Positions 8,514 to 58,722 are shown, counted from the stretch's first letter. The stretch: 60,209 nucleotides of DNA from Candidatus Pacearchaeota archaeon (GCA_023136775.1 JAGLQO010000003.1:1-60209), one strand, 5' to 3'. Numbers and translations: made by a program. Notes: generated from the sequence alone by a model not told the origin.

Positions 8514-9185
8514 ATGAAGAAATATGAACTCTTCTCGACCTATGCTGGGAAATTAATTGTTATTAATGTTATTGCATTTTTTGCGTTTATGATTTTTGTT
8601 GGGATTGTTGGCGGAGAAAAAGCCATTTCTTGGGTTGCTTTGATGCCTGCTGCTATTTTTTCTGGGAAAAGTGTTTGGACTTTTATTACTAGTATGTTTA
8701 TGCACGGGAGCTTTACTCATCTTCTTGTAAATATGATTTCGCTTTCATTTATTGGGAGCTTCGTAGAAAAGTTGATTGGAAAGAAAAGATTTTTGAGAGT
8801 TTATCTTATTGGTGGTTTGTTTGCTGGATTGTTGTTTGTGACACTCGCTGGGTTATTTGGGAATACTTTACTTGGTGAAAGAATTGTTGGAAGCCCCTTT
8901 GCCTATGCCGTTGGAGCTAGTGGTGCTATATTTGCTCTTGGTGGACTTTTAGCGGTGTTAACTCCGAAGCTTCCGGTGATGGTTTTCTTTATTATTCCTA
9001 TGCCAATGTGGATTGCTATGGCTGTTTTAATGTTTGGACTTTGGGCAGTGTCTCTTGGAGCTGGACTTGGAATTGGGAATACTGCTCACCTCGGAGGACT
9101 TATTATTGGCCTTGGATATGGATTTTATTTGAAGAAAAAATATCCACATAAAACTAAAATGATTAGTCGATACTTTACAAAATGA
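8514..9185 (+). CDS. Rhomboid-family intramembrane serine protease
   Basis: 6 TM segments. Motifs MHGSFTHLLVNM, GASGAIFALGG and HLGGLIIG. Confidence 0.85.
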   Translation: MKKYELFSTYAGKLIVINVIAFFAFMIFVGIVGGEKAISWVALMPAAIFSGKSVWTFITSMFMHGSFTHLLVNMISLSFIGSFVEKLIGKKRFLRVYLIGGLFAGLLFVTLAGLFGNTLLGERIVGSPFAYAVGASGAIFALGGLLAVLTPKLPVMVFFIIPMPMWIAMAVLMFGLWAVSLGAGLGIGNTAHLGGLIIGLGYGFYLKKKYPHKTKMISRYFTK

Positions 9186-9188
9186 AGC

Positions 9189-9340
9189 ATTGACATTTTT
9201 TTCTGGTGAAAAAAATCGTCAGAGAAAATCCGCACAGGATTTTAGATTCCAGACCGCTTACCGTACATGCCGCAGACGGTCTGATATATTTAGGGAATTT
9301 GTTACAAATTCCCGTTATTCGGAGTGAATGCTATGTAACC
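9189..9340 (+). ncRNA. Stop-codon-proximal structured element, short form, copy A
   Basis: P1 TTGAC-A-T7-CTGGTG-A7-TC-GTCAG. P2 AAAATCC/GGATTTT. P3 CAGACCG/CGGTCTG around CTTACCG..CGCAGA. P4 GGGAATTTG/CAAATTCCC. Starts 3 nt after the rhomboid stop. Confidence 0.7.
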
Positions 9341-9476
9341 TATTTGATTTCTCATACTCTCAATTAGATTCCCAACTAAAGATGACCCTAGTGCCATGAA
9401 TATATCTCGCCGTTTGTCGACACCTTCGGTTTTTTATTTTGGTAAGATTGATAAAGGTTATTTTCTTTATTGATTT

Positions 9477-10055
9477 ATGAAAAAGAGTTGGTTGAAGGAA
9501 AATTATATTGCGTGTTTTAAATTTTTTAAAGAAAGTGAAAAACACATTTTATTTGCAACTTTATTATTTTTTATAACTGCATTTATTGGATTTTTATTTC
9601 CTATTTTTTTTAGAGAACAAATTATAGATATAATGACTCAAATGATTGGTCTTTTAGATGGAAAATCTGCGTTTGAACTCGTGTCATTAATTTTTTTCAA
9701 TAATATGAAAGCTAGTTTTATGGCGATGGTTCTTGGAATTGCTATTGGTATTTTTCCAATCTTTACGGGAATTGTTAATGGATATATACTTGGATTTGTT
9801 TCTAGGCAGGTAGTGGCTGTCGAGGGGATTTGGGTTATGTGGCAACTTCTTCCTCATGGAATTTTTGAAATCCCTGCAATTTTATTTTCAATTGGGATTG
9901 GGGTAAAAATTGGGACTGATTTATTTAAAGAAAAAGCGAAAGAAAAGCTTCGGAAAAATTTCAGAGAAGGGTTAAGGTTTTTTGTTTTTGTTGTGTTCCC
10001 GCTTTTACTTATTGCTGGGATTATTGAAGGATTACTAATAGCCATACTCGGCTAG
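9477..10055 (+). CDS. SpoIIM-like (DUF95) membrane protein
   Basis: TM-rich ORF. LLPHGIFEIPAILFSIGIG is typical of the stage II sporulation protein M family. Confidence 0.7.
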   Translation: MKKSWLKENYIACFKFFKESEKHILFATLLFFITAFIGFLFPIFFREQIIDIMTQMIGLLDGKSAFELVSLIFFNNMKASFMAMVLGIAIGIFPIFTGIVNGYILGFVSRQVVAVEGIWVMWQLLPHGIFEIPAILFSIGIGVKIGTDLFKEKAKEKLRKNFREGLRFFVFVVFPLLLIAGIIEGLLIAILG

Positions 10056-10122
10056 TTGGTAGTGGGTAGTTGGCAGTTGGTAGTAGGCAGTGAAAGACAT
10101 TGTTGCGTCGTTTTTCGACGCT
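10053..10122 (+). repeat. R-motif copy 1: G/T-rich degenerate short tandem repeats plus conserved CATTGTTGCGTCGTTTTTCGACGCT
   Basis: Shares 24 of 25 nt with 58684-58708 and is identical to 11701-11725. Hairpin GCGTCG-TTTTT-CGACGC followed by a T-rich run. Confidence 0.7.
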
Positions 10123-10150
10123 TTTGTATTAGAAGTGAATGCCATATAAC

Positions 10151-10224
10151 ATTTAAAAAAATTGATTTAGACTTTTTTGTTTTCCGTAATTATTCAAGAC
10201 CCAAGATTCTTTTCTTATATCTTC
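10151..10224. repeat. 74-bp perfect duplicate of the 3' end of the nre-like gene (partner 10448-10521)
   Basis: Identical string atttaaaaaaattgatttagac...cttatatcttc at both positions. The two copies bracket element copy B. Confidence 0.9.
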
Positions 10225-10230
10225 ATAATA

Positions 10231-10446
10231 TCAACATTTTTCCTGGTGAAAAAATCGTTGAGAAAATTCTGCAGGAATTTTAAATTCCGAACCGCTTACC
10301 GTCAAGGCCGCAGACGGTTCGATATAATTCTTTAGGAGAACTTCGTTCTCATATTTTGCAGCTGGCATTTTCTTAACGGGCGTTGCCCTAAAAATACACA
10401 GGCTGCCGACTTGGCTGTTCAATTGCGAAATAATTTTCGCTCCAAC
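10231..10446 (+). ncRNA. Structured element, long form, copy B
   Basis: P1 TCAAC/GTTGA. P2 AAAATTC/GAATTTT. P3 CGAACCG/CGGTTCG. P4 GAGAAC/GTTCTC. An extra 3' domain has hairpins GGGC-GTT-GCCC and GCGAAA-TAA-TTTTCGC. Confidence 0.7.
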
Positions 10447-10449
10447 AAT

Positions 10450-11649
10450 TTAAAAAAATTGATTTAGACTTTTTTGTTTTCCGTAATTATTCAAGACCCA
10501 AGATTCTTTTCTTATATCTTCCATGTTAATATCGATTCTAGTTTGCATATTTTTTATTGCGTCATCGATTGAGTCGAAATATTTTGGCTCGTTTTTGAAA
10601 GTTCTTCTGGCTGTTTCTCTTACTACTCCAACTCCTAGTGGTGCGTAATATTCTGCCCTGATTTCCCTGAAGATGAAAACTGTGGCTTGTCGTTTTATTT
10701 TTTCTAGGTATTCTGTTAGGGGAAGTCTCATTGCGTAATAACCGCCTGTGATGTTTGAGGCGTATTTTGTTCGACCTTTGAAAGATTCGTAATCTTGAGA
10801 AATAACAGTTTTATCTCCGACGTAAAAGTTTCCGGCTTTCCATGCTTCAATTGCGTCAAATGTAAAATATCCTGGAAGAAGTAAGGCTTCTATATAATTA
10901 CCGACGAAGTTTCCTGAGAAAAGCATTATTTGATTAATCTCTGGGTAGAATCTTATTTTTTCTAAATGTTGTTTTGATATTGTGTCGTCGGTTGCGGTGA
11001 TGCTCCATCTAGTTGGGACCATTCTTCTTCGAATTTTTTTACCGAGCAAACCGATGGATAATAATTTTTGTAGATGATCAACTTTTGTGTTTGATTTATA
11101 TAATTCCTTTAGGGCATCAGTTGCTTTGACGTCGTAGTCGCTGGTCAAATAATCAACTTTCTTTGAGACTTTTACGTTCTCTTCTAGGATTGCTTTTTTT
11201 ATTGGTGCGGGATTTGTCATCGGTCTAAAAACTGAGTCTGGGGTAAATTCCATTGTTGGTTTTCTTTTTAGAAAAATTTCTGTCGAGACTGGTTTTGAAG
11301 AAAGAGCCAATTCTTTTGTAACGGACTTTAACCTATCATCTATTTTGATATGGGATTTTGATTTGCCATAAATTAATTGTCCTCTTAATCTAAGTACATT
11401 TGCTATTGAGAAATTGCTTTTGCTCCACTCTTCGGCTGTTGCGAAATTTGAAACGTTGTCATTATCTTGCGGGGTTAAGATTCCGGAATTAATATAGGGA
11501 TAGCCAATTCTTCCTACAAAAAGTTCTGGGGCTGATTTTCCAGAGAAATGTAATTTTGGTTTTGGGGCGTTGTCAATAAATTTATTTAAAATCTTGCAAG
11601 GCTTTCCACACATTCCTTTTCCTTTGCATTTGATACATAGATTATCCAT
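10450..11649 (-). CDS. NreA-like protein (archaeal Nre family, DUF650/DUF651)
   Basis: N-terminal LCIKCKGKGMCGKPCKIL Cys cluster and about 400 aa length fit my memory of Nre. I use the ATG at 11649 because the upstream extension runs through repeat R2. Confidence 0.55.
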   Translation of the reverse strand: MDNLCIKCKGKGMCGKPCKILNKFIDNAPKPKLHFSGKSAPELFVGRIGYPYINSGILTPQDNDNVSNFATAEEWSKSNFSIANVLRLRGQLIYGKSKSHIKIDDRLKSVTKELALSSKPVSTEIFLKRKPTMEFTPDSVFRPMTNPAPIKKAILEENVKVSKKVDYLTSDYDVKATDALKELYKSNTKVDHLQKLLSIGLLGKKIRRRMVPTRWSITATDDTISKQHLEKIRFYPEINQIMLFSGNFVGNYIEALLLPGYFTFDAIEAWKAGNFYVGDKTVISQDYESFKGRTKYASNITGGYYAMRLPLTEYLEKIKRQATVFIFREIRAEYYAPLGVGVVRETARRTFKNEPKYFDSIDDAIKNMQTRIDINMEDIRKESWVLNNYGKQKSLNQFF

Positions 11650-12112
11650 GGGATAATCTGCTTGTAGTTTGTGGCTGATAGTTTGTGGTTCTTTCCAATG
11701 CATTGTTGCGTCGTTTTTCGACGCTATTTATTTTTCTGTTTTCAAGCCTTAGTTTAATTGAATTATTAATTATTTTGATTAGACTTGATAATTTTAGTCC
11801 TATTGATTGTATATCTTGATTTAACTTCTCAAATTGTTCGTTAGATATATAATTTAAATCTCTTGACATTAATAAAAAATTCTCACACTCTTTTAGGCTT
11901 CCCATTGCTATATGTAAAAATCTTAGAAAATCTTTGTCCGAGTTTCTTCCTGTGCCTTCTGCTATGTTTGCTGAAATACTCAGAGAGGCTCGTCTTAATT
12001 GTGAAGTTATAGAATACATTTCTTCTCTAGGGAAATTTTTTGTTATTTTATAAACTTCTTTCCCAAATTCAAAGGATAGCTTCCATGTTTGTAATTTTTT
12101 AAAATCCTGCAT
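11642..12112 (-). CDS. Four-helix-bundle protein (23S rRNA intervening-sequence protein / Avd-like, PF05635-like)
   Basis: SITSQLRRASLSISANIAEG and MGSLKECENFL are characteristic. The last ~30 codons read through repeat R2, so the true C-terminus is uncertain. Confidence 0.75.
   Translation of the reverse strand: MQDFKKLQTWKLSFEFGKEVYKITKNFPREEMYSITSQLRRASLSISANIAEGTGRNSDKDFLRFLHIAMGSLKECENFLLMSRDLNYISNEQFEKLNQDIQSIGLKLSSLIKIINNSIKLRLENRKINSVEKRRNNALERTTNYQPQTTSRLSHG
11665..11725 (+). repeat. R-motif copy 2
   Basis: TAGTTTGTGG repeated twice, then CATTGTTGCGTCGTTTTTCGACGCT. Confidence 0.7.
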
Positions 12113-12197
12113 AGTATAATAATGAATCCTTTGGATTCACTGTTTGTGACTTGTCCAACTATCTCTTTTTACTTTCAACTTAAGATAGGCAATTTAC

Positions 12198-12383
12198 TTA
12201 TTCTTTCAAACTAGTAAATCCAACTACTAAAGAAACTAATCCTGCTAAAAGCATGACCCACATGAGGCCGCCTTTTAGGAAAACTAGAGCTGCGTCACCG
12301 AAGCCTTTGAAGTTAATAATCCAAGCGTAAACTGGGGAAAGTAATACCACCAATCCAACTAATATTCCGACGAATTTATTCAT
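12198..12383 (-). CDS. Small two-TM membrane protein
   Basis: 61-aa hydrophobic ORF. Confidence 0.4.
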   Translation of the reverse strand: MNKFVGILVGLVVLLSPVYAWIINFKGFGDAALVFLKGGLMWVMLLAGLVSLVVGFTSLKE

Positions 12384-12436
12384 GTTAAAAATTAGAGTAA
12401 TTTCTTTATAAGAATTATGCAGATTAATTAGGTATA

Positions 12437-12560
12437 TTGGAGCAAAGCGATTGAGTTGACCAAATTACGGGAGCGAAGGAATCTGAGCGATATGAGCGAG
12501 TGTTGGAACGAAGTGGTAGCTAAGCGAATAAATACGATAAGGCGTGAGCCTTATCTAAAT
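12437..12560 (-). repeat. Decayed long-form element fragment (P4-like hairpin plus 3' domain)
   Basis: Minus strand reads GATAAGGC-TCAC-GCCTTATC, GTATTTATTCGC ... AATCGCTTTGCTCCAA. Same layout as 4651-4768. Confidence 0.5.
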
Positions 12561-12604
12561 TGCTTTCTAGTTAATTTTATAAAGTTTTGAGGGTTAGGAA
12601 TTTT

Positions 12605-12889
12605 ATGAAGAAGGTGATTGGTTACGGAATTTCTGTTGCAGGTATTGCAACTATGGTAATTGGATTTGGAATGGTTAATGTTCCTTGGGAATTCGTAAAA
12701 ACTATTGGTTCAAAAATTCTAGTGATGATTGGAGTTGGTGCGATTGCTGTTGGTGTGATTATTGCTTTGAAGTTTGGTGGAAGTTCTAGTAAAAAAACTT
12801 CTAGGGTAAAAAGTTCTGGTGAAAAAGAGGTTCCAATTTACGAAGGAACTGGGAAAAATAGAAAAGTTATTGGATATAGAAATGATTGA
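12605..12889 (+). CDS. Small membrane protein
   Basis: ATG at 12605 (MKKVIGYG...). Two TM segments and a charged tail. Confidence 0.5.
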   Translation: MKKVIGYGISVAGIATMVIGFGMVNVPWEFVKTIGSKILVMIGVGAIAVGVIIALKFGGSSSKKTSRVKSSGEKEVPIYEGTGKNRKVIGYRND

Positions 12890-12893
12890 AACA

Positions 12894-13040
12894 GTTGGCT
12901 TTTTTTCTGGTGAAAAAAATACCAGGTGAAATCCGCAAAGATTTCTAGATTCCGAACCGCTTACCGTCACGCCGCAGACTGGTTCGATATATTTAGTGCG
13001 AATATTTATTCGCACGTTCTTGGAAGTGGATGTTATTTTA
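12894..13040 (+). ncRNA. Structured element, short form, copy C
   Basis: P1 outer TTGG/CCAG. P2 GAAATC/GATTTC. P3 CGAACC/GGTTCG. P4 GTGCGAAT/ATTCGCAC. Starts 4 nt after the stop. Confidence 0.65.
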
Positions 13041-13128
13041 TTTTGGAGATTTTAGTTTAGATATAAATATAGACGTATGAATTATTAGTTATCTAAATAT
13101 TTATAAAGAATTTATTACTTATTTTGTT

Positions 13129-13902
13129 ATGAAAAGGATGTTGAGTATTTTTGTTTTGGGATTAATTTTATTTTCATCTGGTATGAGCCTTGTTAGTGCG
13201 GCAACTGGACCAGTTGATGTTATTCAAGGTGTTGTTAGTGGTGCTTATGAATTAGTAAGACCTGTTTTAGAGGGAATAATTGGAGATACTGATACTGCAG
13301 AATTCTTTTTAGCTAAAATTTTATTTTTAGTAATTATTTTTGCAATTATTTATAAGAGTTTAGAAAAAATTCCATTCTTTAGTAGCTCTAATACAAAATG
13401 GGTATTATGGGTGGTTAGTATTTCTGTTTCTATATTATCAATCAGATGGTTTGGAGATTCAGAAATTATTCGGACTGTTATACTTCCATATTCTGCACTT
13501 GGAATAGCTATAACTGCTGGTATTCCGTTTGTAGTTTGGTTCACGATAACAGAATTTAGTAATATGTTAAGAATATATAGGAAAATAAGTTGGATTTTCT
13601 TTATTGTTATATTCACTTCATTGTCTTTAATGAGAAGAGATGCAGGGTTTTCATATATATATTCAATAACAGCTATCCTTGGATTTATTGCAATGATGAC
13701 GGATGCTCAAATACAAAGACTTAAACATGCGGCAAAACTAGAAAAGACTAGGACATATGCAAATAAAACTTTACTTGATAAATTAAGGGACAAGCTAAAA
13801 GATGCTGATGACAGATATTCTAGAGGAGATATTGACCATGAAGAATTTGAAAAGCGTGTTAAAGAATTGAAAATAAAAATAAATCATTTATCTGTAAAAT
13901 AA
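13129..13902 (+). CDS. Signal-peptide multi-TM protein with a SHOCT-like C-terminal helix (paralogue 1)
   Basis: Signal peptide and 4-5 TM segments. C-terminal RGDIDHEEFEKRVKELK. Alignable with 13941..14699 and 18382..19167. Confidence 0.6.
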   Translation: MKRMLSIFVLGLILFSSGMSLVSAATGPVDVIQGVVSGAYELVRPVLEGIIGDTDTAEFFLAKILFLVIIFAIIYKSLEKIPFFSSSNTKWVLWVVSISVSILSIRWFGDSEIIRTVILPYSALGIAITAGIPFVVWFTITEFSNMLRIYRKISWIFFIVIFTSLSLMRRDAGFSYIYSITAILGFIAMMTDAQIQRLKHAAKLEKTRTYANKTLLDKLRDKLKDADDRYSRGDIDHEEFEKRVKELKIKINHLSVK

Positions 13903-17100: not shown

Positions 17101-17335
17101 ACGGGGTTTGAGTGATTGAGGTGGCGGATTGTTGGAGCGAGAACTTGTTCGAGCGATGGGATATTCAAGACAGGGGAAACAAATTTTGGCTCGCGGATTT
17201 ATAGGATTTAATGTATTCAAGGTAGTGGAATGGGGGACAATTTTTGCTCACGGATTTTCACAGACACCTTCGGTGTTCACGGATTCAAGGCAATGATTTT
17301 GGGAATGTCAACAAAGGGGCAATTTTGTTTTGGAA
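17101..17335. repeat. Intergenic repeat array (GAGCGA module, CAGGGGAAACAAATTTTGGCTC module, CACGGAT-hairpin unit)
   Basis: 17123-17200 resembles 18097-18175. The unit 17246-17307 resembles 45661-45723. Confidence 0.7.
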
Positions 17336-17340
17336 ATTAA

Positions 17341-17589
17341 TCATTGAAATTTTTTATGGTATAAATCTCTGATTAAAATGACATCTTCTTTTAAATTATA
17401 AATATATGACAATCTAAACGGCTTAATATACAATTCTCTTGTACCTGCTCTGACATTTCTCATAGGTTTCCCAGCCAAAGGATTTTCAGAAATCTTTCTT
17501 ATTTGCTTTTGTATTTTTAATTTTAAAGTTTCATCTTTAATTTTTGAAAAAATTTGCGTAAATTTTTTATCAAAACGAACAATCACCAT
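17341..17589 (-). CDS. RelE/ParE-family type II toxin
   Basis: 82 aa. Overlaps the upstream antitoxin stop by 7 nt. RelE-like C-terminus (RLSYIY...VILIRDLYHKK). Confidence 0.7.
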   Translation of the reverse strand: MVIVRFDKKFTQIFSKIKDETLKLKIQKQIRKISENPLAGKPMRNVRAGTRELYIKPFRLSYIYNLKEDVILIRDLYHKKFQ

Positions 17590-17849
17590 TTATTCATTTC
17601 TTCCTCTAAGGTATCTAGTTCAACTTCCACATATTCACCCGTATCCATTCTTTTTTCAGCTTCCCTAGTTCTATTTTCAAATTCTAAATCTTCTAATATG
17701 CTTGCTTCAACATCAGATTCATTTGTTAGTATTATTTTATTATTTTCAATTACTACAATAAAATTATCTCCTTCATTAAAATTTTTTCTCATTTCTTGAG
17801 GAATTACTATTTGCCCACGGGAACTTAATTTTGTCATACCTATTGTCAT
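17583..17849 (-). CDS. AbrB/SpoVT-type antitoxin
   Basis: MTKLSSRGQIVIPQEMRK is a swapped-hairpin motif, followed by an acidic C-terminus. I chose the ATG at 17849 or 17837 because the longer track ORF runs into repeats. Confidence 0.7.
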   Translation of the reverse strand: MTIGMTKLSSRGQIVIPQEMRKNFNEGDNFIVVIENNKIILTNESDVEASILEDLEFENRTREAEKRMDTGEYVEVELDTLEEEMNKW

Positions 17850-17902
17850 AGTAAGATTAAACTTATTTAATATATAAATCTTCCTTTGTGTTAATTTTGA
17901 TA

Positions 17903-18250
17903 AATATTCAAGACAGGGGAAACAAATTTTGGCTCGTAGATTTTGGGGATTCAAGACAAGAAGACAAATAGCTCACGGATTTACACGGATGAGCTTGCCC
18001 ATTCACGGCATTCTCACAATATATAATTAAATAGGTTGGGTATATTTATTCAAGATACTAGGTTATTGGAGTGAGAACTTGTTCGAGCGATGAGGTGGAT
18101 GGATTGTTGGAGTGAAGATGGAATCGAGCGATGGGATATTTAAGATAGGGAAAACAAATTTTGGCTCACGGATTTACACGGATGGGCTTGCCCATTCACG
18201 GATTTTATTCCTAGGATTGTTGGAGTGAAGATGGAATCGAGCGATATTAA
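17903..18250. repeat. Intergenic repeat array (same modules as 17101-17335, two to three rounds)
   Basis: attcaagacaggggaaacaaattttggctc at 17906, with a variant at 18137. CACGGAT-hairpin units at 17971-18017 and 18164-18206. ggattgttggagtgaagatggaatcgagcgat occurs twice. Confidence 0.7.
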
Positions 18251-20729: not shown

Positions 20730-20959
20730 TATTCTTCCAATTCTTTTTCTGGCTTCTTTATAATTAATGCTAAAAAGAAAACTGCGACTAGTGACAAAAT
20801 AAAAGATATTACTGCATAGGAAATCGCACCTGTTGATCCGATGACTGCTCCTGTTACTAATCCTTGCTTTACTGCTCCCGTGGCTGTGAGGAGAATGACC
20901 CCTAAAGAAGAGAACATAATCGCAAGACTGACGCCTAAAAGCATACCTATCATCACCAT
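20717..20959 (-). CDS. Small 3-TM membrane protein
   Basis: 80-aa hydrophobic ORF. I prefer it to the overlapping 20691..21071 ORF, whose translation is not protein-like. Confidence 0.4.
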   Translation of the reverse strand: MVMIGMLLGVSLAIMFSSLGVILLTATGAVKQGLVTGAVIGSTGAISYAVISFILSLVAVFFLALIIKKPEKELEEYYAS

Positions 20960-21186
20960 AAATTAAACAAGTTAAGTTTTTATATAAATATAGTGGTTGA
21001 CATTTTCGTTGATGTGAAAATTGTTGAGGGAAAATTGGGGGATTCCAGATTCCAAAAATTTTCGCAAGCAAATTGTGGAGTTTTTCTTTAAAAAATGAAT
21101 TTTCTATTCACGGCTTATTTAACCTTGTCATACAACCTATTAGAACTGTTATATAATTTTATAAAGTTATTTTATATCGAAGATAT

Positions 21187-22143
21187 ATGGTATTGCCTTA
21201 TATTTTATTTGGTTTGGGGATTTTTATTCTGATTAAGAGTGCTGATTATATCATTGAGGGTTCTTCTTCTTTAGCCAAAAAACTGGGAGTTTCAAATATT
21301 ATTATTGGACTTACTGTCGTTGCGTTTGGGACTAGTCTTCCTGAGTTAGTTGTTAATATTTTTGCTTCAGTTCAGGGTGCTAGTGGAGTATCGTTTGGAA
21401 ATATCGCTGGAAGTAATATCGTTAATGTTCTTTTGATTCTTGGGATTACTGCTATTATTACAAATGTTAAAGTTCGGTCTAGAACTGTTTGGAAAGAAAT
21501 TCCATTTGCACTACTTGCTACTTTCGTTTTGTTTGCTTTAATTAGTAAAATATTTTTTACAAATGAGACAAGTTTACTTTGGAATGATGGATTGGTTTTG
21601 CTTGCTCTTCTTGTTATGTTTATTTATTATATAATACAATCTGCGATTGAGGATAAAAAAAGAATTGAGCTTATTGAGGAGGTTGATGTATCTAATTGGA
21701 AAATAACTGTTAAATTAATTGTGGGTCTTGTTGGTATTTATTTTGGTGGGCAATGGGTTGTTGATGGGGCTGTGTTTATGGCCGGGCAATTGGGGCTTAG
21801 TCAATTTTTAATTTCAGCGACGATAATTGCGATTGGAACTAGTCTTCCGGAATTAGTTGTTTGTATCGTTGCGGCAACTAAGAAAAATATCGATTTGGCG
21901 GTTGGGAATATTGTCGGTAGCAATATTTTCAATATACTTTGGGTATTTGGAGTAATTCCTTTTATTAGTCCTATAAAAATTCCGCCATTTATTGGAATTG
22001 ATATTGGAATTATGTTTGGTTCTATGCTTTTACTTTTTGTGTTTATGTTTCTTGGAAAGAAGAAGGAATTAACAAGAAAGGATGGAATAACTTTTGTTCT
22101 GTTTTATGTTATTTATGTTATTTATATAATAGCGAGAGGATAG
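21187..22143 (+). CDS. Na+/Ca2+ exchanger family (CaCA, YrbG-like)
   Basis: Two alpha-repeats (GTSLPELVVNI and GTSLPELVVCI). About 10 TM segments. Confidence 0.85.
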   Translation: MVLPYILFGLGIFILIKSADYIIEGSSSLAKKLGVSNIIIGLTVVAFGTSLPELVVNIFASVQGASGVSFGNIAGSNIVNVLLILGITAIITNVKVRSRTVWKEIPFALLATFVLFALISKIFFTNETSLLWNDGLVLLALLVMFIYYIIQSAIEDKKRIELIEEVDVSNWKITVKLIVGLVGIYFGGQWVVDGAVFMAGQLGLSQFLISATIIAIGTSLPELVVCIVAATKKNIDLAVGNIVGSNIFNILWVFGVIPFISPIKIPPFIGIDIGIMFGSMLLLFVFMFLGKKKELTRKDGITFVLFYVIYVIYIIARG

Positions 22144-34205: not shown

Positions 34206-34248
34206 GCGAATATTAAAACTATTAGATTAATAAGCATTATTGAGGTAA

Positions 34249-34402
34249 ATTGACATTTTTTAGTGGTCTAAAAAATCGTCAGGGGAAATCCACACAGGAT
34301 TTCTAGATTCCAAACAGCTTACCGTCGAGGCCGCAGACTGGTTCGATACATGGAGGGAATTTCTTTGAAATTCCCGTTTAGGGGAGTGGCTGTTATCTTT
34401 CA
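34249..34402 (+). ncRNA. Structured element, short form, copy D
   Basis: P1 inner TTTTTTAG/CTAAAAAA. P2 GAAATCC/GGATTTC. P3 imperfect (CAAACAG vs CTGGTTCG). P4 GGGAATTTC/GAAATTCCC. Lies between divergent genes. Confidence 0.6.
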
Positions 34403-34473
34403 TGAAACAAGCAGTATTTTATTTCAAAAAACTAATTAATTAGAATTATAAAGGTATTATCTGATATTTTACT

Positions 34474-38361: not shown

Positions 38362-41300
38362 TCATCCTATCACATACCAGGAAATACCATTACAGGCAAG
38401 AGTTACCCCCCCATAATTTGTAAAAGACAAATCAACACCATCTGGACATATTATTTTTTGAGTTCCACTTGCCTCATTATGTTCAATAATCATGGTATAA
38501 GATGGATGAGATTTATAAATATGAACTATTTGTCCATCAACACCATTAGCTAATCCTGCAATATATATATTTGCATCTGATGGACTAACTATAACAGAAT
38601 TCACTCCGCTTACATCTAATGCATCACTTGAAGCTGAGATTACCTTAACAGAAGAAGATATTGCCCCATTAACTTCTAGTTTTGAATGCGGATCTGTTAC
38701 TCCAATCCCCACATCCCCACCCATAATACACATAGAATTCGCCTGATTACAATTAACCCCATTCATATCATCCAATCCAATCGCAACAACATAATCAGCC
38801 CCTGCTTGGATTTCTCTTCCCATTGCTGTTGAATAATCCCCTGAAGCTATTGTATAGGCGCCCATTGCTGTTGAATAATCACCTGAAGCATTTGTAGTAC
38901 GCCCCATTGCTGTTGAATAACTCCCTATAGCATCTGTATTAGAACCCATAGCTACAGAAGAAGTACCTGAAGCTGTTGTATAGGCGCCCATTGCTGTTGA
39001 GGTAGAACCTAAAGCAGTTGTCCAAAAACCCATTGCTGTCGAATAAAATCCTGAAGCATTTGTTCGATACCCCATTGCTGTTGCAGATGGACCCGAAGCA
39101 GTTGTATCCCCACCCATCGCCACAGCATAATCACCTGTCGCACTATTCAAAGACGAACCAATTGTCGCCGCCCCACCAGAACTTACCTCTACATCTAATT
39201 TAGCAGAAGGAGTTGTTGTTCCAATTCCAACTCTATTATTAGTTTGATCAATAACTAAAGTATTAGAATCAAAGTTAAGATTACTAGTTAAAGTCCAAGC
39301 TCCACCCGTTGGCATTCTAATAGATTCTATATTTCCACTTGGGAAAAAACTAGTTGCTGAATCTCCAGTTAATGCAGAACCTCCTTCTGAAGATGAACCT
39401 GCATAGTTTCCTGTTGTGTCGGTTCCAAGTGCAACTGAATTTGCTCCTATAGCTATATTCCCAATAGTTCCTGTCACATCTCCTCCAACTCCAACTCCTT
39501 GAACGTCAGTTGCTGTTTCTATCACATCTGTTGTGACATGATTATAAGCAATATTTCCATAGTCTCCTCTGTATGCTGTTGTGCTTGTAGTTCCTAGATT
39601 TACTCCAACTGTGTCTGCTCCTAAATTTACGGTTCCAACACTTCCAGCTGTTCCTGCATGACTTGCAACATTTAAAGTTGGAGTCCCTGTAGTTCCACCA
39701 CCAGTAAGCCCAGTTCCTGCCGTAACGCCTAAAATATCTCCTCCATCATTTGCATCTGTTCCACAGCTAAATTCATTTGTTCCTGCAGTATATAATAATT
39801 TTCCAGTTGTACAATCTGGAATTATTTTAGCTTCCCAATTATTAACACCATTTCCAATCATTATAGCGTCTTCAATACTTGCTGAAAGTCCTGTTCCTCC
39901 CCTAGCAATTGCTAATGTTCCTGTTGTTAATTTTGTTACTGCTAGGTTTGGAATATCATTTGCCACTAAACTTCTAAAGTTTGGAGAACCAGCTGACCCA
40001 CTTGGAGAAGCAAATACTAAGTTTGCTGCTTGACTAACTAGGGTCGCCGTCAAAGTTCCAGAAGTTGTTACTGGAGAATTTGCGACATTAAAGATTGAAG
40101 GCATTGAAAGTCCTACACTTGCAACGTCTCCTGCTCCTCCAATAGCGTCAACTATCCAGGTAAATCCTGCAGTTGCTGAATCATAACTTAAAATATAATT
40201 ATCAGTTGGAGTGTTTGTAGCTTCTAAATCTATTTCTTGAATTGTATTGTCTAAAATTTCTGCAGTTGCTACTCCGCCTGTTGCAATCTCAGTAGTACCA
40301 ATTGAGTCTTGAACAATTTCATTATTACCGATACTGTTTGCTGTTACCGCAATATCTGGGATTGGACCAGTTCCAAATGTAACTGTTATTGCGTTTCCTC
40401 CAGTTACTTCGGTTAAATCTCCCGAGCCAGTTCCAACTGTTGAAATATCTTTACAATTTATACCGTTTTCATCACAATATTCTGTAGCTCCGACTTGACC
40501 TTCAACATCTAATTTTAAAGTTTCAGATGGGGTAGTTGTTCCTATTCCTACCCTGCTGCTGGTTGTTATATTTCCAGATGAATTTTCCCAAAGACTTGTT
40601 ACTGAAATGTCTGCATATAGGGTGTCCGCGTATGATTCATTCCAACTTTCATTGTCTCCCGCTACTGCGATATCTGCATATAGGGTATCTGCGTATGTTT
40701 TGTTAAATGTGGCGTATGTGTCGTTCCAGTAATTTAATGGGTTAAATATTGAATAAAATAATGTTTCGGCCAAAGATTGATTCCATGATTGATTATCTGC
40801 TCCAGAAATTCCCGTGAGTAAACTTCCGTTTCCTATAAAATAATCTGCTGTGATATTATATCCTGTTGCGTTCAAATTTTCGTCGAATATGATTCCGCCA
40901 ACGTAAACATTTTGAGCCATAAAAGAATAGGGGCTTGTTGTTAAATTCATTCTTGGTGCCATTTCGCTGTCGCCTTCAATTGTAATTCCTAGATAATATT
41001 GTTCGGAGAAATTAAGTCCTGTTGCGTCTAAAATTACGTCGTAGAAAATTCCATCAGTAATTGTCACATCTCTAACAGAATTCCAGAGTGAAACTCCGCC
41101 CGTATAAGAATCATAAATATTAAAAGTAAATTGAAATGTTCCGTTCATTGAACCAGATGAATTGGAGAGTTTACCATGAATGTTAAAAGTTTGAGGAACA
41201 GCGTCGGTTATTGGAGTTGGGTCCACTATGTAATCGAATTCAACTGAATTTCCTATAATTTTCAAATCAAAAGTGTCTTCATTTCCTACTAGAGAAGTTA

Positions 41301-45420: not shown

Positions 45421-45730
45421 GGGGTTTATTTTTGGAATCTGGGGGAAGGCAAATTGCTCGCGGCACCCTCACAAATATATGGTAGATATTGGTTGGGGCA
45501 TTCTAATTTTGGGGATTTTGGGGATTTAAGAACTGGAATAGCCACTAACACCTTCGGTGTACACTAACGCAATAAATTGCGCGCACGAACCTGCGGTGCT
45601 TTTTGTTGATATTTTGATTTTGGCTAAATTTTGCTTGAGAATGTTTTGTTAATTTTAATTGCTCACGGATTTGCACAGATGCCTAACGGCATTCACGGAT
45701 TGAGGACAATGATTTTGAGAGTGAATTTCT
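45421..45730. repeat. Intergenic repeat array related to 17.1-18.2 kb arrays
   Basis: atctgggggaaggcaaattgctcgcgg resembles agacaggggaaacaaattttggctcgcgg. The CACGGAT-hairpin unit at 45661-45723 is also present. Confidence 0.6.
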
Positions 45731-47653: not shown

Positions 47654-47803
47654 ATTGACAAAATTTTCTGGTGAAAATTTTCGTCAGGTATCGTCCACAC
47701 AGGACTCTAATTTCCGAACCGCTTACCGCACAGGTCGCAGACGGTTAGATATATGAGGGAATTTGTTCCAAATTCCCGTTTTGGGGAATGGATGTTATAT
47801 GAC
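47654..47803 (+). ncRNA. Structured element, short form, copy E
   Basis: P1 inner AAAATTTT/AAAATTTT. P2 GTCC/GGAC. P3 CGAACCG/CGGTTAG (one mismatch). P4 GGGAATTTG/CAAATTCCC. Starts 4 nt after the tfs stop. Confidence 0.65.
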
Positions 47804-51278: not shown

Positions 51279-51291
51279 TTAAAAATAAAAA

Positions 51292-51362
51292 TGACTCCAC
51301 CAGGAATCGGACCTGGGCCTTTTCGGTGTAAGCGAAATAGTCTACCATTAGCTTATGGAGTC
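51292..51362 (-). tRNA. tRNA-Val (anticodon UAC)
   Basis: Folded by hand. Acceptor GACTCCA/TGGAGTC. Anticodon arm TTTCG-CTTACAC-CGAAA. T arm CCAGG-TCCGATT-CCTGG. 4-nt variable loop. No encoded CCA. Confidence 0.85.
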
Positions 51363-51383
51363 ATATAATGAATTCATAAGCTT

Positions 51384-51716: not shown

Positions 51717-51843
51717 TTATCTGAGAATCTAATTGTTCATTAATTTTATCAATTGACTTATTTATGAATCCGCATCGAGCACATTTCATTTCACCTTCAA
51801 TATTTTTATATCTACTAGAATTACATGCTGGACATTTCTTCAT
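51706..51843 (-). CDS. Small zinc-ribbon protein (45 aa; not in the ORF track)
   Basis: Hand translation gives MKKCPACNSSRYKNIEGEMKCARCGFINKSIDKINEQLDSQITTF, with CPxC...CxxC. Confidence 0.4.
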   Translation of the reverse strand: MKKCPACNSSRYKNIEGEMKCARCGFINKSIDKINEQLDSQITTF

Positions 51844-51904
51844 ATTAATAAAAAATCATGTTAAGATTTAAACTTATCTAATAAATATAACAAAAGTTGT
51901 GTTA

Positions 51905-52191
51905 ATCAATGGAGCGGAAATTATTTCCGCGATTAAATAGCCAAGTTGCAGTCTGTGTTTTTTTAGGGCGGATGCCCGTTAATCTCACGTAAAAGTGTAC
52001 CCTTTAGATAGGCAATCTGAGATTGCATTTTAATCGGGCAAAAAAACCAGCTGCAAAATATGAGAATCGAAGATTCTCCTAAAAACCTATATCAAATTAT
52101 CTGCGACGCGAGTCGGTAAGTAATTTGGGATCTAGGACTTGCCTCTCGAAGACCAACCTGACGATTTTTTTCACCAGAAAAAAATGTCAAT
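51905..52191 (-). ncRNA. Structured element, long form with an extra nested-helix insertion, copy F
   Basis: P1 is identical to copy A over 34 nt. P3 CAAATTA/TAATTTG. P4 GAGAATC/GATTCTC. 3' domain hairpins GGGC-ATCC-GCCC and GCGGAAAT-A-ATTTCCGC. Starts 3 nt after the stop of 52195..52869. Confidence 0.7.
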
Positions 52192-52194
52192 TGC

Positions 52195-52869
52195 TCATAT
52201 CATCTTTTTCATTTCTTCAATTTCTACGGAAGAAATTGCTGCACCTTTAAACTTTACACCGTAAAGCAAAGCATCTAAAAGATTTTTATCTTTTTTTATT
52301 GGGATTAATCCCTTCTTGTATGCCACAAATAACAACTCTGCAGATCTAATGTATTTGAATTGTTTTAGATCTTTTAGTAATTCCAAATTTGAATCTAAAG
52401 GGGTATGTAATTTTCTCTCCATCATATTTTCTAAATTTTCTGGAGCTTCTGTTAACATACGAGTTGTCCTTTCATCTATTACTATAACATTATCACAACC
52501 GCAAAGATTTGAAAACGCTAAGCATGCAGCTTCTCCTTCATGAATAATTTTTATTTTTTCTCCAGTAGCGGTTGTTCTTAAAGCTCCATTTGTAATTTTC
52601 AAAATTTTCTTAACTTCTTTGTCCATTTTTTCTTGAGAAATAATTTCTGTTGACATTTTAAAAATTCCACGGTTAATCATTTCATTAACTTGGAGGGCTT
52701 CTAATTTATACTTTTTAATTTTCATTGGTCTATCGACTACTTCATATCTAACCCTTGGAGTCAAAACAAACTCTCCATCAAAAACTTCTTTTAATTTTTC
52801 AATTACTGGAAGCATTCCATTCATCGTTAAAGAAATAATAGGACCTGCGTCAAATATTAAATATTTCAT
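52195..52869 (-). CDS. PIN-like domain protein
   Basis: MKYLIFDAGPIISL... and IHEGEAACLAFS...VIVIDERT suggest a PIN-like fold. The ATG at 52869 lies 1 nt after the upstream stop. Confidence 0.5.
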   Translation of the reverse strand: MKYLIFDAGPIISLTMNGMLPVIEKLKEVFDGEFVLTPRVRYEVVDRPMKIKKYKLEALQVNEMINRGIFKMSTEIISQEKMDKEVKKILKITNGALRTTATGEKIKIIHEGEAACLAFSNLCGCDNVIVIDERTTRMLTEAPENLENMMERKLHTPLDSNLELLKDLKQFKYIRSAELLFVAYKKGLIPIKKDKNLLDALLYGVKFKGAAISSVEIEEMKKMI

Positions 52870-55309: not shown

Positions 55310-55380
55310 ATATAAAAAACCAAAAATTGATTTATAAAGCTTAGCACGAAAAATCTTGAGAAATAAACAACCCATCGTTC

Positions 55381-55900
55381 GCTGAGGCTCACTTCAAAGC
55401 TCGCTGCGGGATATTTCTAAACTCGGGACAATTTCAACTGCCCAACCTTCCGACCTTGATTCTCAACATATCTTTTAACATCATCTAGTCCCCGACCATC
55501 GCCAACAGTATCAATATGTCCACCATCGCTCCAGAATTCGCCACCCCACAGTTCTTCCTTCAGCTTCGGGAATTTTTTAAAAATCTGAATTGCCAAAATA
55601 CTTTTGCAAATTTGCATAATTCTTGACGGTGAATTCTTTGGAGCACTTTCAACAACAATATGAATATGATCATCTTCATGTCCCAATGCATCAAACCAAA
55701 GATAATATCTCTTGGAAATTCCACGACAAATTTCTTTCATAAAATCAAAAACGTCGTCGGTGATTAAATCCGGCCTATACTTTACAACGAAGACCATGTG
55801 ATATCGGATCCTATACGAACAATGACTAGCCTTTCTAACTTTCATAAAAAAACAAACTTCAAAACCTAGTTAAGCTTATCGCAGCAAGCTGCGGGGTATT
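55381..55900 (-). mobile_element. IS200-like element (tnpA only) with similar subterminal sequences at both ends
   Basis: Both flanks carry AATA(T/C)CCCGCAGC in direct orientation. The 5' flank forms CGCAGC-TT-GCTGCG. Confidence 0.7.
55417..55845 (-). CDS. tnpA: IS200/IS605-family Y1 (HUH) transposase
   Basis: 142 aa. YHMVFVVKYR, HUH motif DHIHIVV and catalytic-Tyr region VKRYVENQG. Confidence 0.9.
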   Translation of the reverse strand: MKVRKASHCSYRIRYHMVFVVKYRPDLITDDVFDFMKEICRGISKRYYLWFDALGHEDDHIHIVVESAPKNSPSRIMQICKSILAIQIFKKFPKLKEELWGGEFWSDGGHIDTVGDGRGLDDVKRYVENQGRKVGQLKLSRV

Positions 55901-56130
55901 CACCCAGTGAGAAATAATTTAAACTCTTAGTGCTTAGGGAAATTATGAAAACTAATTTAGAGAAAATTTTAATTAAAGAATTCTGCGAAAAACTACCTTT
56001 CAATTGGGCTCCGATTGAAAAGAATGGAATCTGTAGAATTCCAAATGATTACTGTATATATTGTAAAGAATTTTTTAAAATATAATTTACGAAAAATCAA
56101 ATATATACTTTAATCAATAAAAAATATAGT

Positions 56131-58625: not shown

Positions 58626-58708
58626 GGTCTGGGGTGGCGGGTCTGGGGTGGCGGGTCTGGGGTGGCGGGTCTGGGGTAGAAAACATTGTTGCGTCGTTTG
58701 TCGACGCT
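58626..58708 (+). repeat. R-motif copy 3: 14-mer GGTCTGGGGTGGCG x3.7 plus CATTGTTGCGTCGTTTGTCGACGCT
   Basis: Perfect tandem 14-mers at 58626-58677. The conserved motif is at 58684-58708. Confidence 0.85.
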
Positions 58709-58722
58709 TTTGTTTTTGTGTT

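Follow-up and report, generated by a model that had tools for sequence, protein, structure and literature searches.

The 3' end of the nre gene in this Candidatus Pacearchaeota genome stands beside a dead second copy of itself, with a structured, non-coding repeat element, B, exactly between the two. Comparison of sequences indicates that B together with one of the 74-bp copies behaves as an insertion that is specific to the lineage and probably recent. The best explanation, to which we assign a probability of roughly 0.45, is a recent single event in which DNA was copied and rejoined by a one-off template switch; a transposase with a fixed long stagger is less likely. Positions given below refer to the window, the whole 60,209-nucleotide stretch that was analysed, and the features discussed are collected in Table 1.

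Table 1. Features of the window that bear on the duplication at the nre 3' end
Feature	Position	Strand	Details
nre	10450..11703	-	archaeal Nre-family DNA repair protein; PF04894 (Nre_N) 1.2e-75, PF04895 (Nre_C) 6.6e-34
SpoIIM-family membrane protein gene	9477..10055	+	PF01944 2.9e-26; convergent with nre; syntenic in relatives
'tail' repeat	10054..10130	+	14-bp GGTAGTTGG-type tandem and hairpin GCGTCGTTTTTCGACGC
Probable 3'-end remnant of an older short-form, A-like element	10126..10150	+	TATTAGAAGTGAATGCCATATAAC versus TATTCGGAGTGAATGCTATGTAAC in copy A
L74 (left 74-bp copy)	10151..10224	.	non-coding duplicate of the nre 3' end; 100% identical to 10448-10521
Element B, long form	10225..10447	+	223 bp: 5 nt (ATAAT), 146-nt conserved core, ~70-nt 3' extension
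R74 (right 74-bp copy)	10448..10521	-	2 nt past the stop, stop and last 23 codons of nre
Copy A, short form	9189..9340	+	R1 163 bits; between rhomboid and SpoIIM
Copy C, short form	12893..13042	+	R1 149 bits
Copy D, short form	34249..34400	+	R1 147 bits; in a divergent promoter region
Copy E, short form	47654..47802	+	R1 148 bits; between convergent genes
Copy F, long form	51905..52199	-	R1 110 bits; sole minus-strand copy
Copy G, degenerate	20996..21135	+	R1 26 bits, E = 8e-4; without the CTTACCG...CGCAGA core
IS200-type Y1 (HUH) transposase gene	55417..55845	-	PF01797 3.6e-31; NF033573 4.6e-35

The two 74-bp blocks had been described as identical in a sequence-only reading of the window, and they are: 100% identity extends over 74 nt, start-to-start distance is 297 nt, and a scan of the whole window for repeats recovers the same pair. 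An exact 74-mer repeat within 60 kb is beyond chance. Blastn lengthens the match leftward by 3 nt with one gap (AAC-ATTT versus AACAATTT; 77/78). The right copy had been taken for the last 23 codons plus stop of a minus-strand, nre-like gene, an assignment borne out by the open reading frame and its Pfam matches to Nre: the stop codon occupies 10450-10452, with a run of seven T residues at the stop and within R74, and the last 23 codons occupy 10453-10521. Because Nre_C reaches residue 416 of 417, the duplicated codons lie inside a conserved domain. At the other end of the gene, the true start is probably 18 codons downstream of the start of the open reading frame, the downstream position being favoured because homologues are 398-399 aa long. 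A 23S_rRNA_IVP gene with weak likeness to bAvd (score 27.9, below the cut-off of 40) lies immediately upstream of nre. The left copy is non-coding, as had been proposed, and its plus strand is antisense to nre; B likewise fills the gap between the copies without remainder. Two finer claims about the repeat's edge did not hold. The further ~10 bp of similarity on the right (ATAATATCAAC versus CATGTTAATATCGAT) is at the level that random segments of the window give by chance (P = 0.085), and the TCAAC there belongs to B itself, as the 5' arm of a hairpin in which GTTGA is the compensating partner. The 'one G missing' is only one possible alignment of that non-significant stretch.

On its left side the duplication begins exactly where what is probably an older element ends. 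Against random segments of the window, the remnant's likeness to the 3' terminus of copy A has P = 0.0017, and the remnant belongs to a region kept in the apparently empty allele described below; a search of the window with the family's covariance model did not detect it. Its last base, 10150, is the left edge of the duplication. The remnant ends in …ATAAC and B ends in …CCAACA, and the AAC common to these two ends accounts for the 3-nt leftward extension of the repeat. The 'tail' repeat alongside it has further copies at 11660-11733 and 58626-58716 and is present in filled and empty alleles alike.

B belongs to a family with six intact copies (A-F) and one degenerate copy (G) in the window, six of the seven on one strand. 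A covariance model, R1, built from the six intact copies matches them with 110-163 bits, and it detects B at 10230-10375 over the full model with both termini intact (119 bits, E = 3e-24). The 3' extension of B runs to about 10444 and is common to copy F by alignment. Five of the six intact copies start about 12 nt or less from the stop codon of a co-directional gene, and a stop-codon-like WTRA precedes the 5' hairpin by 1-5 nt, at a distance that varies between copies. The elements begin with ATTGACA… and end with …GYTAT(N)AAC; the 5' and 3' ends do not pair as terminal inverted repeats in any copy, and no A-rich 3' tail was found. Pairwise identity among the window copies is 66-80%, with none close to B, which indicates that the family is old. 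Yet the flanks of B are perfect, so that B represents a new event and not an old resident. A near-identical donor of B was not found within the 60-kb window. Copy E was also seen in samples RS_6, RS_7 and RS_8 (contigs L034-L036).

The family has a conserved fold. This fold comprises a 14-bp 5' hairpin (TTGACATTTTTTTC-UGGU-GAAAAAAATCGTCAG), a closing helix, a GGGAATTTG/CAAATTCCC hairpin and a helix that surrounds the invariant CTTACCG…G.CGCAGA, giving a multi-helix structure with a three-way junction. In a covariation test 92% of cells are paired and 20 of 39 pairs change on both sides, values reached by none of 500 shuffles; slid controls pair at 34-53%. The occurrence of G-U pairs on the plus strand indicates that this is the strand that folds, as RNA or single-stranded DNA. 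Indels between copies break reading frames, so that the element is not protein-coding, and no conserved open reading frame is present in the 223 bp of B. In Rfam the element has no match: only tRNA-Val exceeds its gathering threshold in the window, and nothing relevant appears over 9000-13300 at E ≤ 5. When the core pattern of the family (CTTACCG N4-6 G N CGCAGA N6-7 GATAYA) was run against GTDB genomes, JGI metagenomes and IMG/VR, it gave only chance matches in high-GC bacterial coding DNA, and viral scans with the long-form motif and with the 5' hairpin returned none, so that the family gained no members from these collections.

Evidence that B and one repeat are additions comes from relatives and from an adjacent sample. 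The closest Nre homologues, 83-85% identical, are from genomes named Pacearchaeota or Nanoarchaeota, which places the source among the DPANN archaea, and the nearest available genomes keep the TFE-rhomboid-SpoIIM→←nre synteny. The gap between nre and SpoIIM is 65 bp in one relative (L011), and the two genes overlap by 4 nt in two others (L015, L016); rhomboid and SpoIIM, which are separated by copy A in the window, also overlap by 4 nt in relatives. Over about 38 kb of the relatives' loci the covariance model found no family copy, and nre has a single end. Thus the closest relatives without the element have one nre 3' end, as the sequence-only reading had anticipated for orthologous loci. Other relatives carry unrelated insertions of 1.6-3.2 kb at the SpoIIM/nre junction, and no duplicated nre end of an att-like kind surrounds these. 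The comparison with relatives indicates that the 23S_rRNA_IVP gene upstream of nre, like the 'tail' repeat and the elements, is a lineage-specific addition; to judge from these loci, the nre/SpoIIM junction is a recurrent insertion point.

An empty site with a single 74-bp copy had likewise been predicted, and contig L031 from RS_9 (SAMN18200497), the next sediment layer down, matches it exactly, although this contig is chimeric at its far end. It joins window positions 9009-10224 directly to 10522-10975 with 1 mismatch in 1670 bp, retaining SpoIIM, the same left flank, one 74-bp copy and nre in this order and lacking exactly B and one repeat (L74; 297 bp). Its first 412 bp are unrelated bacterial-type sequence (F-type ATPase a-subunit-like) joined inside the rhomboid gene, and in a second chimeric RS_9 contig (L039) a bacterial CusA-like gene is fused to element E at its middle. 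These two contigs point to low coverage of this genome and to low-k chimeras in RS_9. The unbranched P-74-nre contig implies that both B junctions are absent from the assembly graph. From the coverage implied by the 1.7-kb gap-free stretch, the chance that B was skipped artefactually is roughly estimated at 5-15%, or up to about 30% allowing for unknowns, and on this sequence evidence the empty allele is probably real. It may be ancestral or a revertant produced by recombination between the repeats, alternatives that the sequences do not distinguish.

The filled arrangement is found in three assemblies. The first is the 162.5-kb scaffold that includes the window. It comes from sample SAMN18200496 (RS_8), which was taken from a sediment column at Site-F, a South China Sea cold seep, and sequenced with 2x150 reads on a HiSeq X Ten (PMC9357000). 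The source assembly was made with MEGAHIT at k = 21…141 (PMC9357000), and SPIRE assembles each sample with default MEGAHIT (PMC10767986); the naming style of the ENA contigs suggests that they are SPIRE assemblies. An NCBI MAG contig (L041, DAOWHN010000016.1) is 100% identical over 15,137 bp, including both repeats and B. An RS_6 contig (L002), 99.87% identical, contains nre, R74 and B and then 55 bp of L74 before its end. This reproduction in independent assemblies argues against an expansion during assembly.

The other copies offer little sign of a common duplication length. The sequence-only reading had pointed to them as places where similar long duplications might be found; among the window copies, A, C and E have none and those at D, G and F are weak and debatable. 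No copy in the window besides B has a clear long flank repeat, and repeats of the same length do not recur at every copy. At copy A the 291-bp insert, which splits an ancestral ATGA start/stop overlap, is flanked by just ATGAA on each side, and copies C and E have no flank repeats. At copy D, 34216-34247 and 34428-34456 agree at about 80% over 33 nt (P = 0.004), at copy G similarity covers about 40 nt (20958-20997 versus 21153-21191; P = 0.007), and at copy F 13 of 14 nt match (P = 0.017), all against real intergenic DNA. A second scoring scheme and null model give 0.006-0.05 for D, 0.06-0.16 for G and 0.02-0.07 for F. As decayed flank repeats, these sequence similarities are suggestive only. 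The genes that flank copy G are 45 bp apart in one relative (L013) and 229 bp apart in the window. A transduction of nre-derived sequence to the 3' flank of copy F was considered and rejected, the similarity being at chance level (P = 0.35).

Enzymes that might move the family are scarce in the window. A scan of its approximately 50 open reading frames found no reverse transcriptase, integrase, Cas1 or TnpB, and the only mobile-element enzyme is the IS200-type Y1 transposase, which scores only 18 bits against the RAYT model (cut-off 80). Any link between this transposase and the repeat family is conjectural. Local alignment of the IS200 flanks with all copies on both strands yielded a single AT-rich 15-mer, and the ends are dissimilar. 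GC skew was uninformative as to the relation between copy orientation and replication direction.

In the preferred reading, a single recent event would have brought in B and L74 at once, inserting 297 bp where SpoIIM and nre converge. On the target, 74 bp would separate the joints of this insertion: one joint falls exactly where the remnant ends, 2 nt beyond the stop codon of nre, and the other falls within nre, 23 codons from its end. The sequence between them would have been synthesised twice, leaving the nre 3' end intact and a dead copy beyond B. A one-off copy-and-rejoin event, in replication or break repair, would have used a B-type element at another place in the genome as template; re-annealing may then have occurred through the AAC that the B 3' end (…CCAACA) shares with the remnant 3' end (…ATAAC), after which the 74 bp would have been copied again. 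The perfect direct repeats would now permit precise loss by recombination, so that filled and empty alleles could coexist. We infer both the order of these events and the template-switch mechanism. This mechanism is favoured because the 74-bp length is not a property of the family and because a joint coincides with an element end; with no flank repeats at A, C and E, a fixed stagger of 74 bp does not characterise the family. Several observations weigh against a template switch. The searched 60 kb hold no near-identical donor of B, the microhomology amounts to just 3 nt in AT-rich DNA, and the departure joint, where …CTTC meets ATAAT…, has no donor counterpart in this stretch to be compared with. 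In addition, the empty-site contig and a second RS_9 contig are chimeric, and D, G and, weakly, F may have decayed repeats of 13-40 nt (P = 0.004-0.16).

The main rival is a true long target-site duplication in which nicks 74 nt apart are filled in after DNA nicking or after target-primed reverse transcription of a structured RNA. The first nick would fall at the end of the remnant, and the machinery would recognise element ends or the T-rich nre terminator. This explanation is tentative and clearly less probable than a template switch. It is consistent with the completeness of B and its intact termini (119 bits), with a strand-specific conserved fold whose G-U pairs suit an RNA or single-stranded DNA intermediate, with the coincidence of one duplication edge with an element end, with possible decayed repeats of about 33 nt at D, about 40 nt at G and 13 nt at F, and with the closer spacing in L013 of the genes that flank G (45 versus 229 bp). 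However, A, C and E are without repeats, the signals at D, G and F weaken under the second scoring scheme and null model, and no reverse transcriptase, integrase or Cas1 was found in the window. Moreover, the resident IS200-type transposase makes no target duplications and has ends unlike those of the elements, which themselves lack A-rich tails and terminal inverted repeats. The sequence-only reading had called the locus an insertion footprint. Its insertion half is supported by the relatives, the apparently empty site and the reproduced filled state, whereas the window copies do not show the 74 bp to be a target-site duplication typical of the family; the repair or template-switch alternative that it also offered accounts for the locus no less well than a long staggered cut does. 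Should the signals at D and G be real, the target-site reading gains weight, and real signals at D, G and F would suggest a family-wide insertion mechanism that makes long, variable target duplications. More speculative still is the proposal, doubtful at present, that the structured repeat represents a type of non-autonomous mobile element undescribed in archaea and is active, moving through an RNA or single-stranded DNA intermediate and making variable target duplications of about 30-74 bp that regenerate gene ends or promoters in a genome with almost no intergenic DNA. B would then be the youngest copy, still polymorphic between adjacent sediment layers.

Recombination of the Campbell type is improbable. 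A small circular or linear DNA carrying B and the nre 3' end would have integrated within the 74 bp, leaving att-like repeats whose excision restores the empty allele. Identical direct repeats of which one rebuilds a gene 3' end do resemble attL and attR, and the filled and empty states differ by exactly one unit. But the 223 bp encode nothing and come from an old chromosomal repeat family, no integrase is found among the approximately 50 open reading frames of the window, the other insertions at the junction in relatives lack a duplicated nre end, and the coincidence of the repeat edge with the end of an older element is left unexplained. An assembly artefact is very improbable. It would take the form of a 74-mer loop in the graph, arising from an empty chromosome plus a free circle or array of B and the 74-mer, or from an expansion. 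These are short-read metagenome assemblies, RS_9 contigs contain chimeric joins, and a Logan k=31 contig from RS_8 (L033) ends 30 nt into L74, as would be expected from two different left neighbours of the 74-mer and hence a branch in the graph. Simple expansion is nevertheless unlikely, since no assembler could produce the two B/74 junctions unless real DNA contained them, and since the repeat is resolved by k-mers of more than 76 nt; MEGAHIT with k up to 141 on 150-nt reads spans the 74-mer. The same filled path also appears in three assemblies, including the 162-kb contig and the separately deposited NCBI MAG contig. It is hardly credible that the two copies are a functional pair, either template and variable repeats of a diversity-generating retroelement (DGR) served by the bAvd-like gene or an antisense regulator of nre. 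The position of the 23S_rRNA_IVP gene just upstream of nre and the antisense orientation of the L74 plus strand to the nre 3' end are the points in favour. Against a pair stand the absence of mismatches over 74 bp, adenines included, the identity of the nre end across samples and its conservation in relatives, a bAvd score (27.9) below 40 and the lack of the pair in the empty allele. The DGR version was rejected, there being no reverse transcriptase found in the window and no adenine differences between the repeats, and the functional-pair reading as a whole is close to refuted.

Comparison with known systems yields partial likenesses. Target duplications of transposable elements measure 2-15 bp for insertion sequences and MITEs and about 14-15 bp for casposons, and spacer integration duplicates the CRISPR repeat; LINE and SINE insertions by target priming produce duplications of variable and occasionally great length. 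A length of 74 bp is well beyond any prokaryotic transposase stagger known to us. The arrangement at B resembles such duplications in having a direct repeat of the target on both sides of a repeat-family member and an empty site with one copy, and differs in the 74-bp length, which other copies do not share, and in the lack of terminal inverted repeats, a poly(A) tail and a matching enzyme. A SINE-like retroposon would have target duplications of variable length, an A-rich 3' tail and a source of reverse transcriptase; here the flank repeats may vary in length (74, and possibly 33, 40 and 13 nt), the elements' 3' ends have no A-rich tail, and no reverse transcriptase was found in the 60 kb. 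The attL and attR sites of archaeal and bacterial integrative elements are identical direct repeats, one of which reconstitutes a gene 3' end. Here too perfect repeats of tens of base pairs include one that completes a gene and one dead 3' end, and precise excision is possible; unlike those elements, the insert is a 223-bp non-coding chromosomal repeat without an integrase, and relatives use the site differently. Microhomology-mediated template switching (FoSTeS/MMBIR) has been documented mainly in eukaryotes. It is matched by an insert from elsewhere, a re-copied target, the 3-nt AAC microhomology at one joint and the one-off character of the event, whereas a donor copy and a second microhomology are not observed at B.

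As a family, the elements are comparable to the bacterial structured intergenic repeats known as REP/BIME, ERIC/IRU, BOX, RUP and Correia and to the IS200/IS605-derived MITEs of archaea (PATEs). They too are short, non-coding, hairpin-rich units at gene ends in a compact genome, and the short and long forms, the strand bias (6/7) and the presence of an IS200-type Y1 transposase in the genome add to the resemblance. The elements nevertheless have no relation in sequence or in Rfam to these repeats, and their ends are unlike those of the resident IS200. In contrast to REP-type palindromes they have a multi-helix fold with a three-way junction and an invariant CTTACCG…G.CGCAGA core. IS200/IS605-derived elements insert without duplication, 3' of a conserved tetra- or pentanucleotide; most copies in the window have no duplication, the WTRA before the 5' hairpin lies at variable distance, and the 74-bp repeat at B does not fit such elements. 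A literature search on DPANN MITEs and on prokaryotic templated insertions found nothing specific.

DPANN genomes are tiny and tightly packed, and to our knowledge almost nothing is known of their non-coding repeats or of how these move. Target duplication coupled to insertion is a known phenomenon; what is unusual here is how long the duplication is and how novel the inserted element. The filled site and an apparently empty one occur in neighbouring sediment layers, and the structured element matches no known RNA family or transposon; the filled and empty pair makes mobility directly testable from existing public reads. If the long duplication is regular, it would suggest an unusual integration mechanism and would explain how insertions persist between overlapping genes. 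If it results from a one-off template switch, the locus would stand as a clear prokaryotic case of templated insertion with a flanking duplication. Either way, the perfect repeats make an unstable, reversible polymorphism beside a DNA-repair gene.

The junction between the convergent SpoIIM and nre genes, which holds the long-form copy B, also carries a 25-nt fragment similar to the 3' end of the short-form element A (P = 0.0017). The fragment is probably what is left of an earlier short-form copy that occupied this junction.

The window also holds another small repeat family, here called the 'tail', built from 14-bp tandem units resembling GGTAGTTGG that are followed by a hairpin, GCGTCGTTTTTCGACGC. 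The 23S_rRNA_IVP (bAvd-like) gene has one copy as its 3' end and a solo copy lies past SpoIIM, so that nre is flanked by two direct copies. On the other side of SpoIIM, copy A and 136 bp of additional sequence keep it apart from the rhomboid gene; in relatives the two genes share an ATGA overlap. The 291-bp insert has ATGAA on each edge.

Coordinates of repeats and genes in the window
Feature	Position	Strand	Match
Element A-like fragment	10126-10150		
'Tail' copies	10054-10130; 11660-11733; 58626-58716		
23S_rRNA_IVP gene	11642..12112		
Rhomboid-SpoIIM spacer	9186-9476		
Candidate repeats, copy D	34216-34247; 34428-34456		
Candidate repeats, copy G	20958-20997; 21153-21191		
Candidate repeats, copy F	52215-52228; about 51835-51848		
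30-100-nt repeat cluster	17106-18245; 45661-45698		
Tandem repeat	38777-39137		
tRNA-Val(TAC)	51291-51363	-	
IS200-type Y1 transposase gene	55417-55845	-	PF01797 3.6e-31; NF033573 4.6e-35
Transposase-gene flanks	55340-55416; 55846-55960		

The solitary transposase gene has pyruvate kinase on one side and an NMT1/THI5-like gene on the other, and both its flanks contain the motif CCCGCAGC. The 30-100-nt repeats (for example, GCTCACGGATTTACACGGATG…) adjoin MazE/ParE-like genes, and a 42-nt-period tandem repeat (at least six units, 66-72% identity) falls within a 1442-aa ORF with YadA-head repeats. The tRNA gene, the sole Rfam or ARAGORN match in the window, follows the long-form copy F at a distance of ∼540 bp on its downstream side.

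Two contigs from the neighboring sediment-layer sample RS_9, L031 (1-412) and L039 (reverse complement, 1-225), are chimeras of this archaeon and bacterial genes, one F-type ATPase a-subunit-like and one CusA-like. About 22 nt common with element E spans one of the two chimeric joins.

Candidate flank repeats at copies D, G, and F overlie promoter or start regions of adjacent genes. Their significance varies with the scoring scheme and null model, and the sequences on either side of these copies may be decayed direct repeats.
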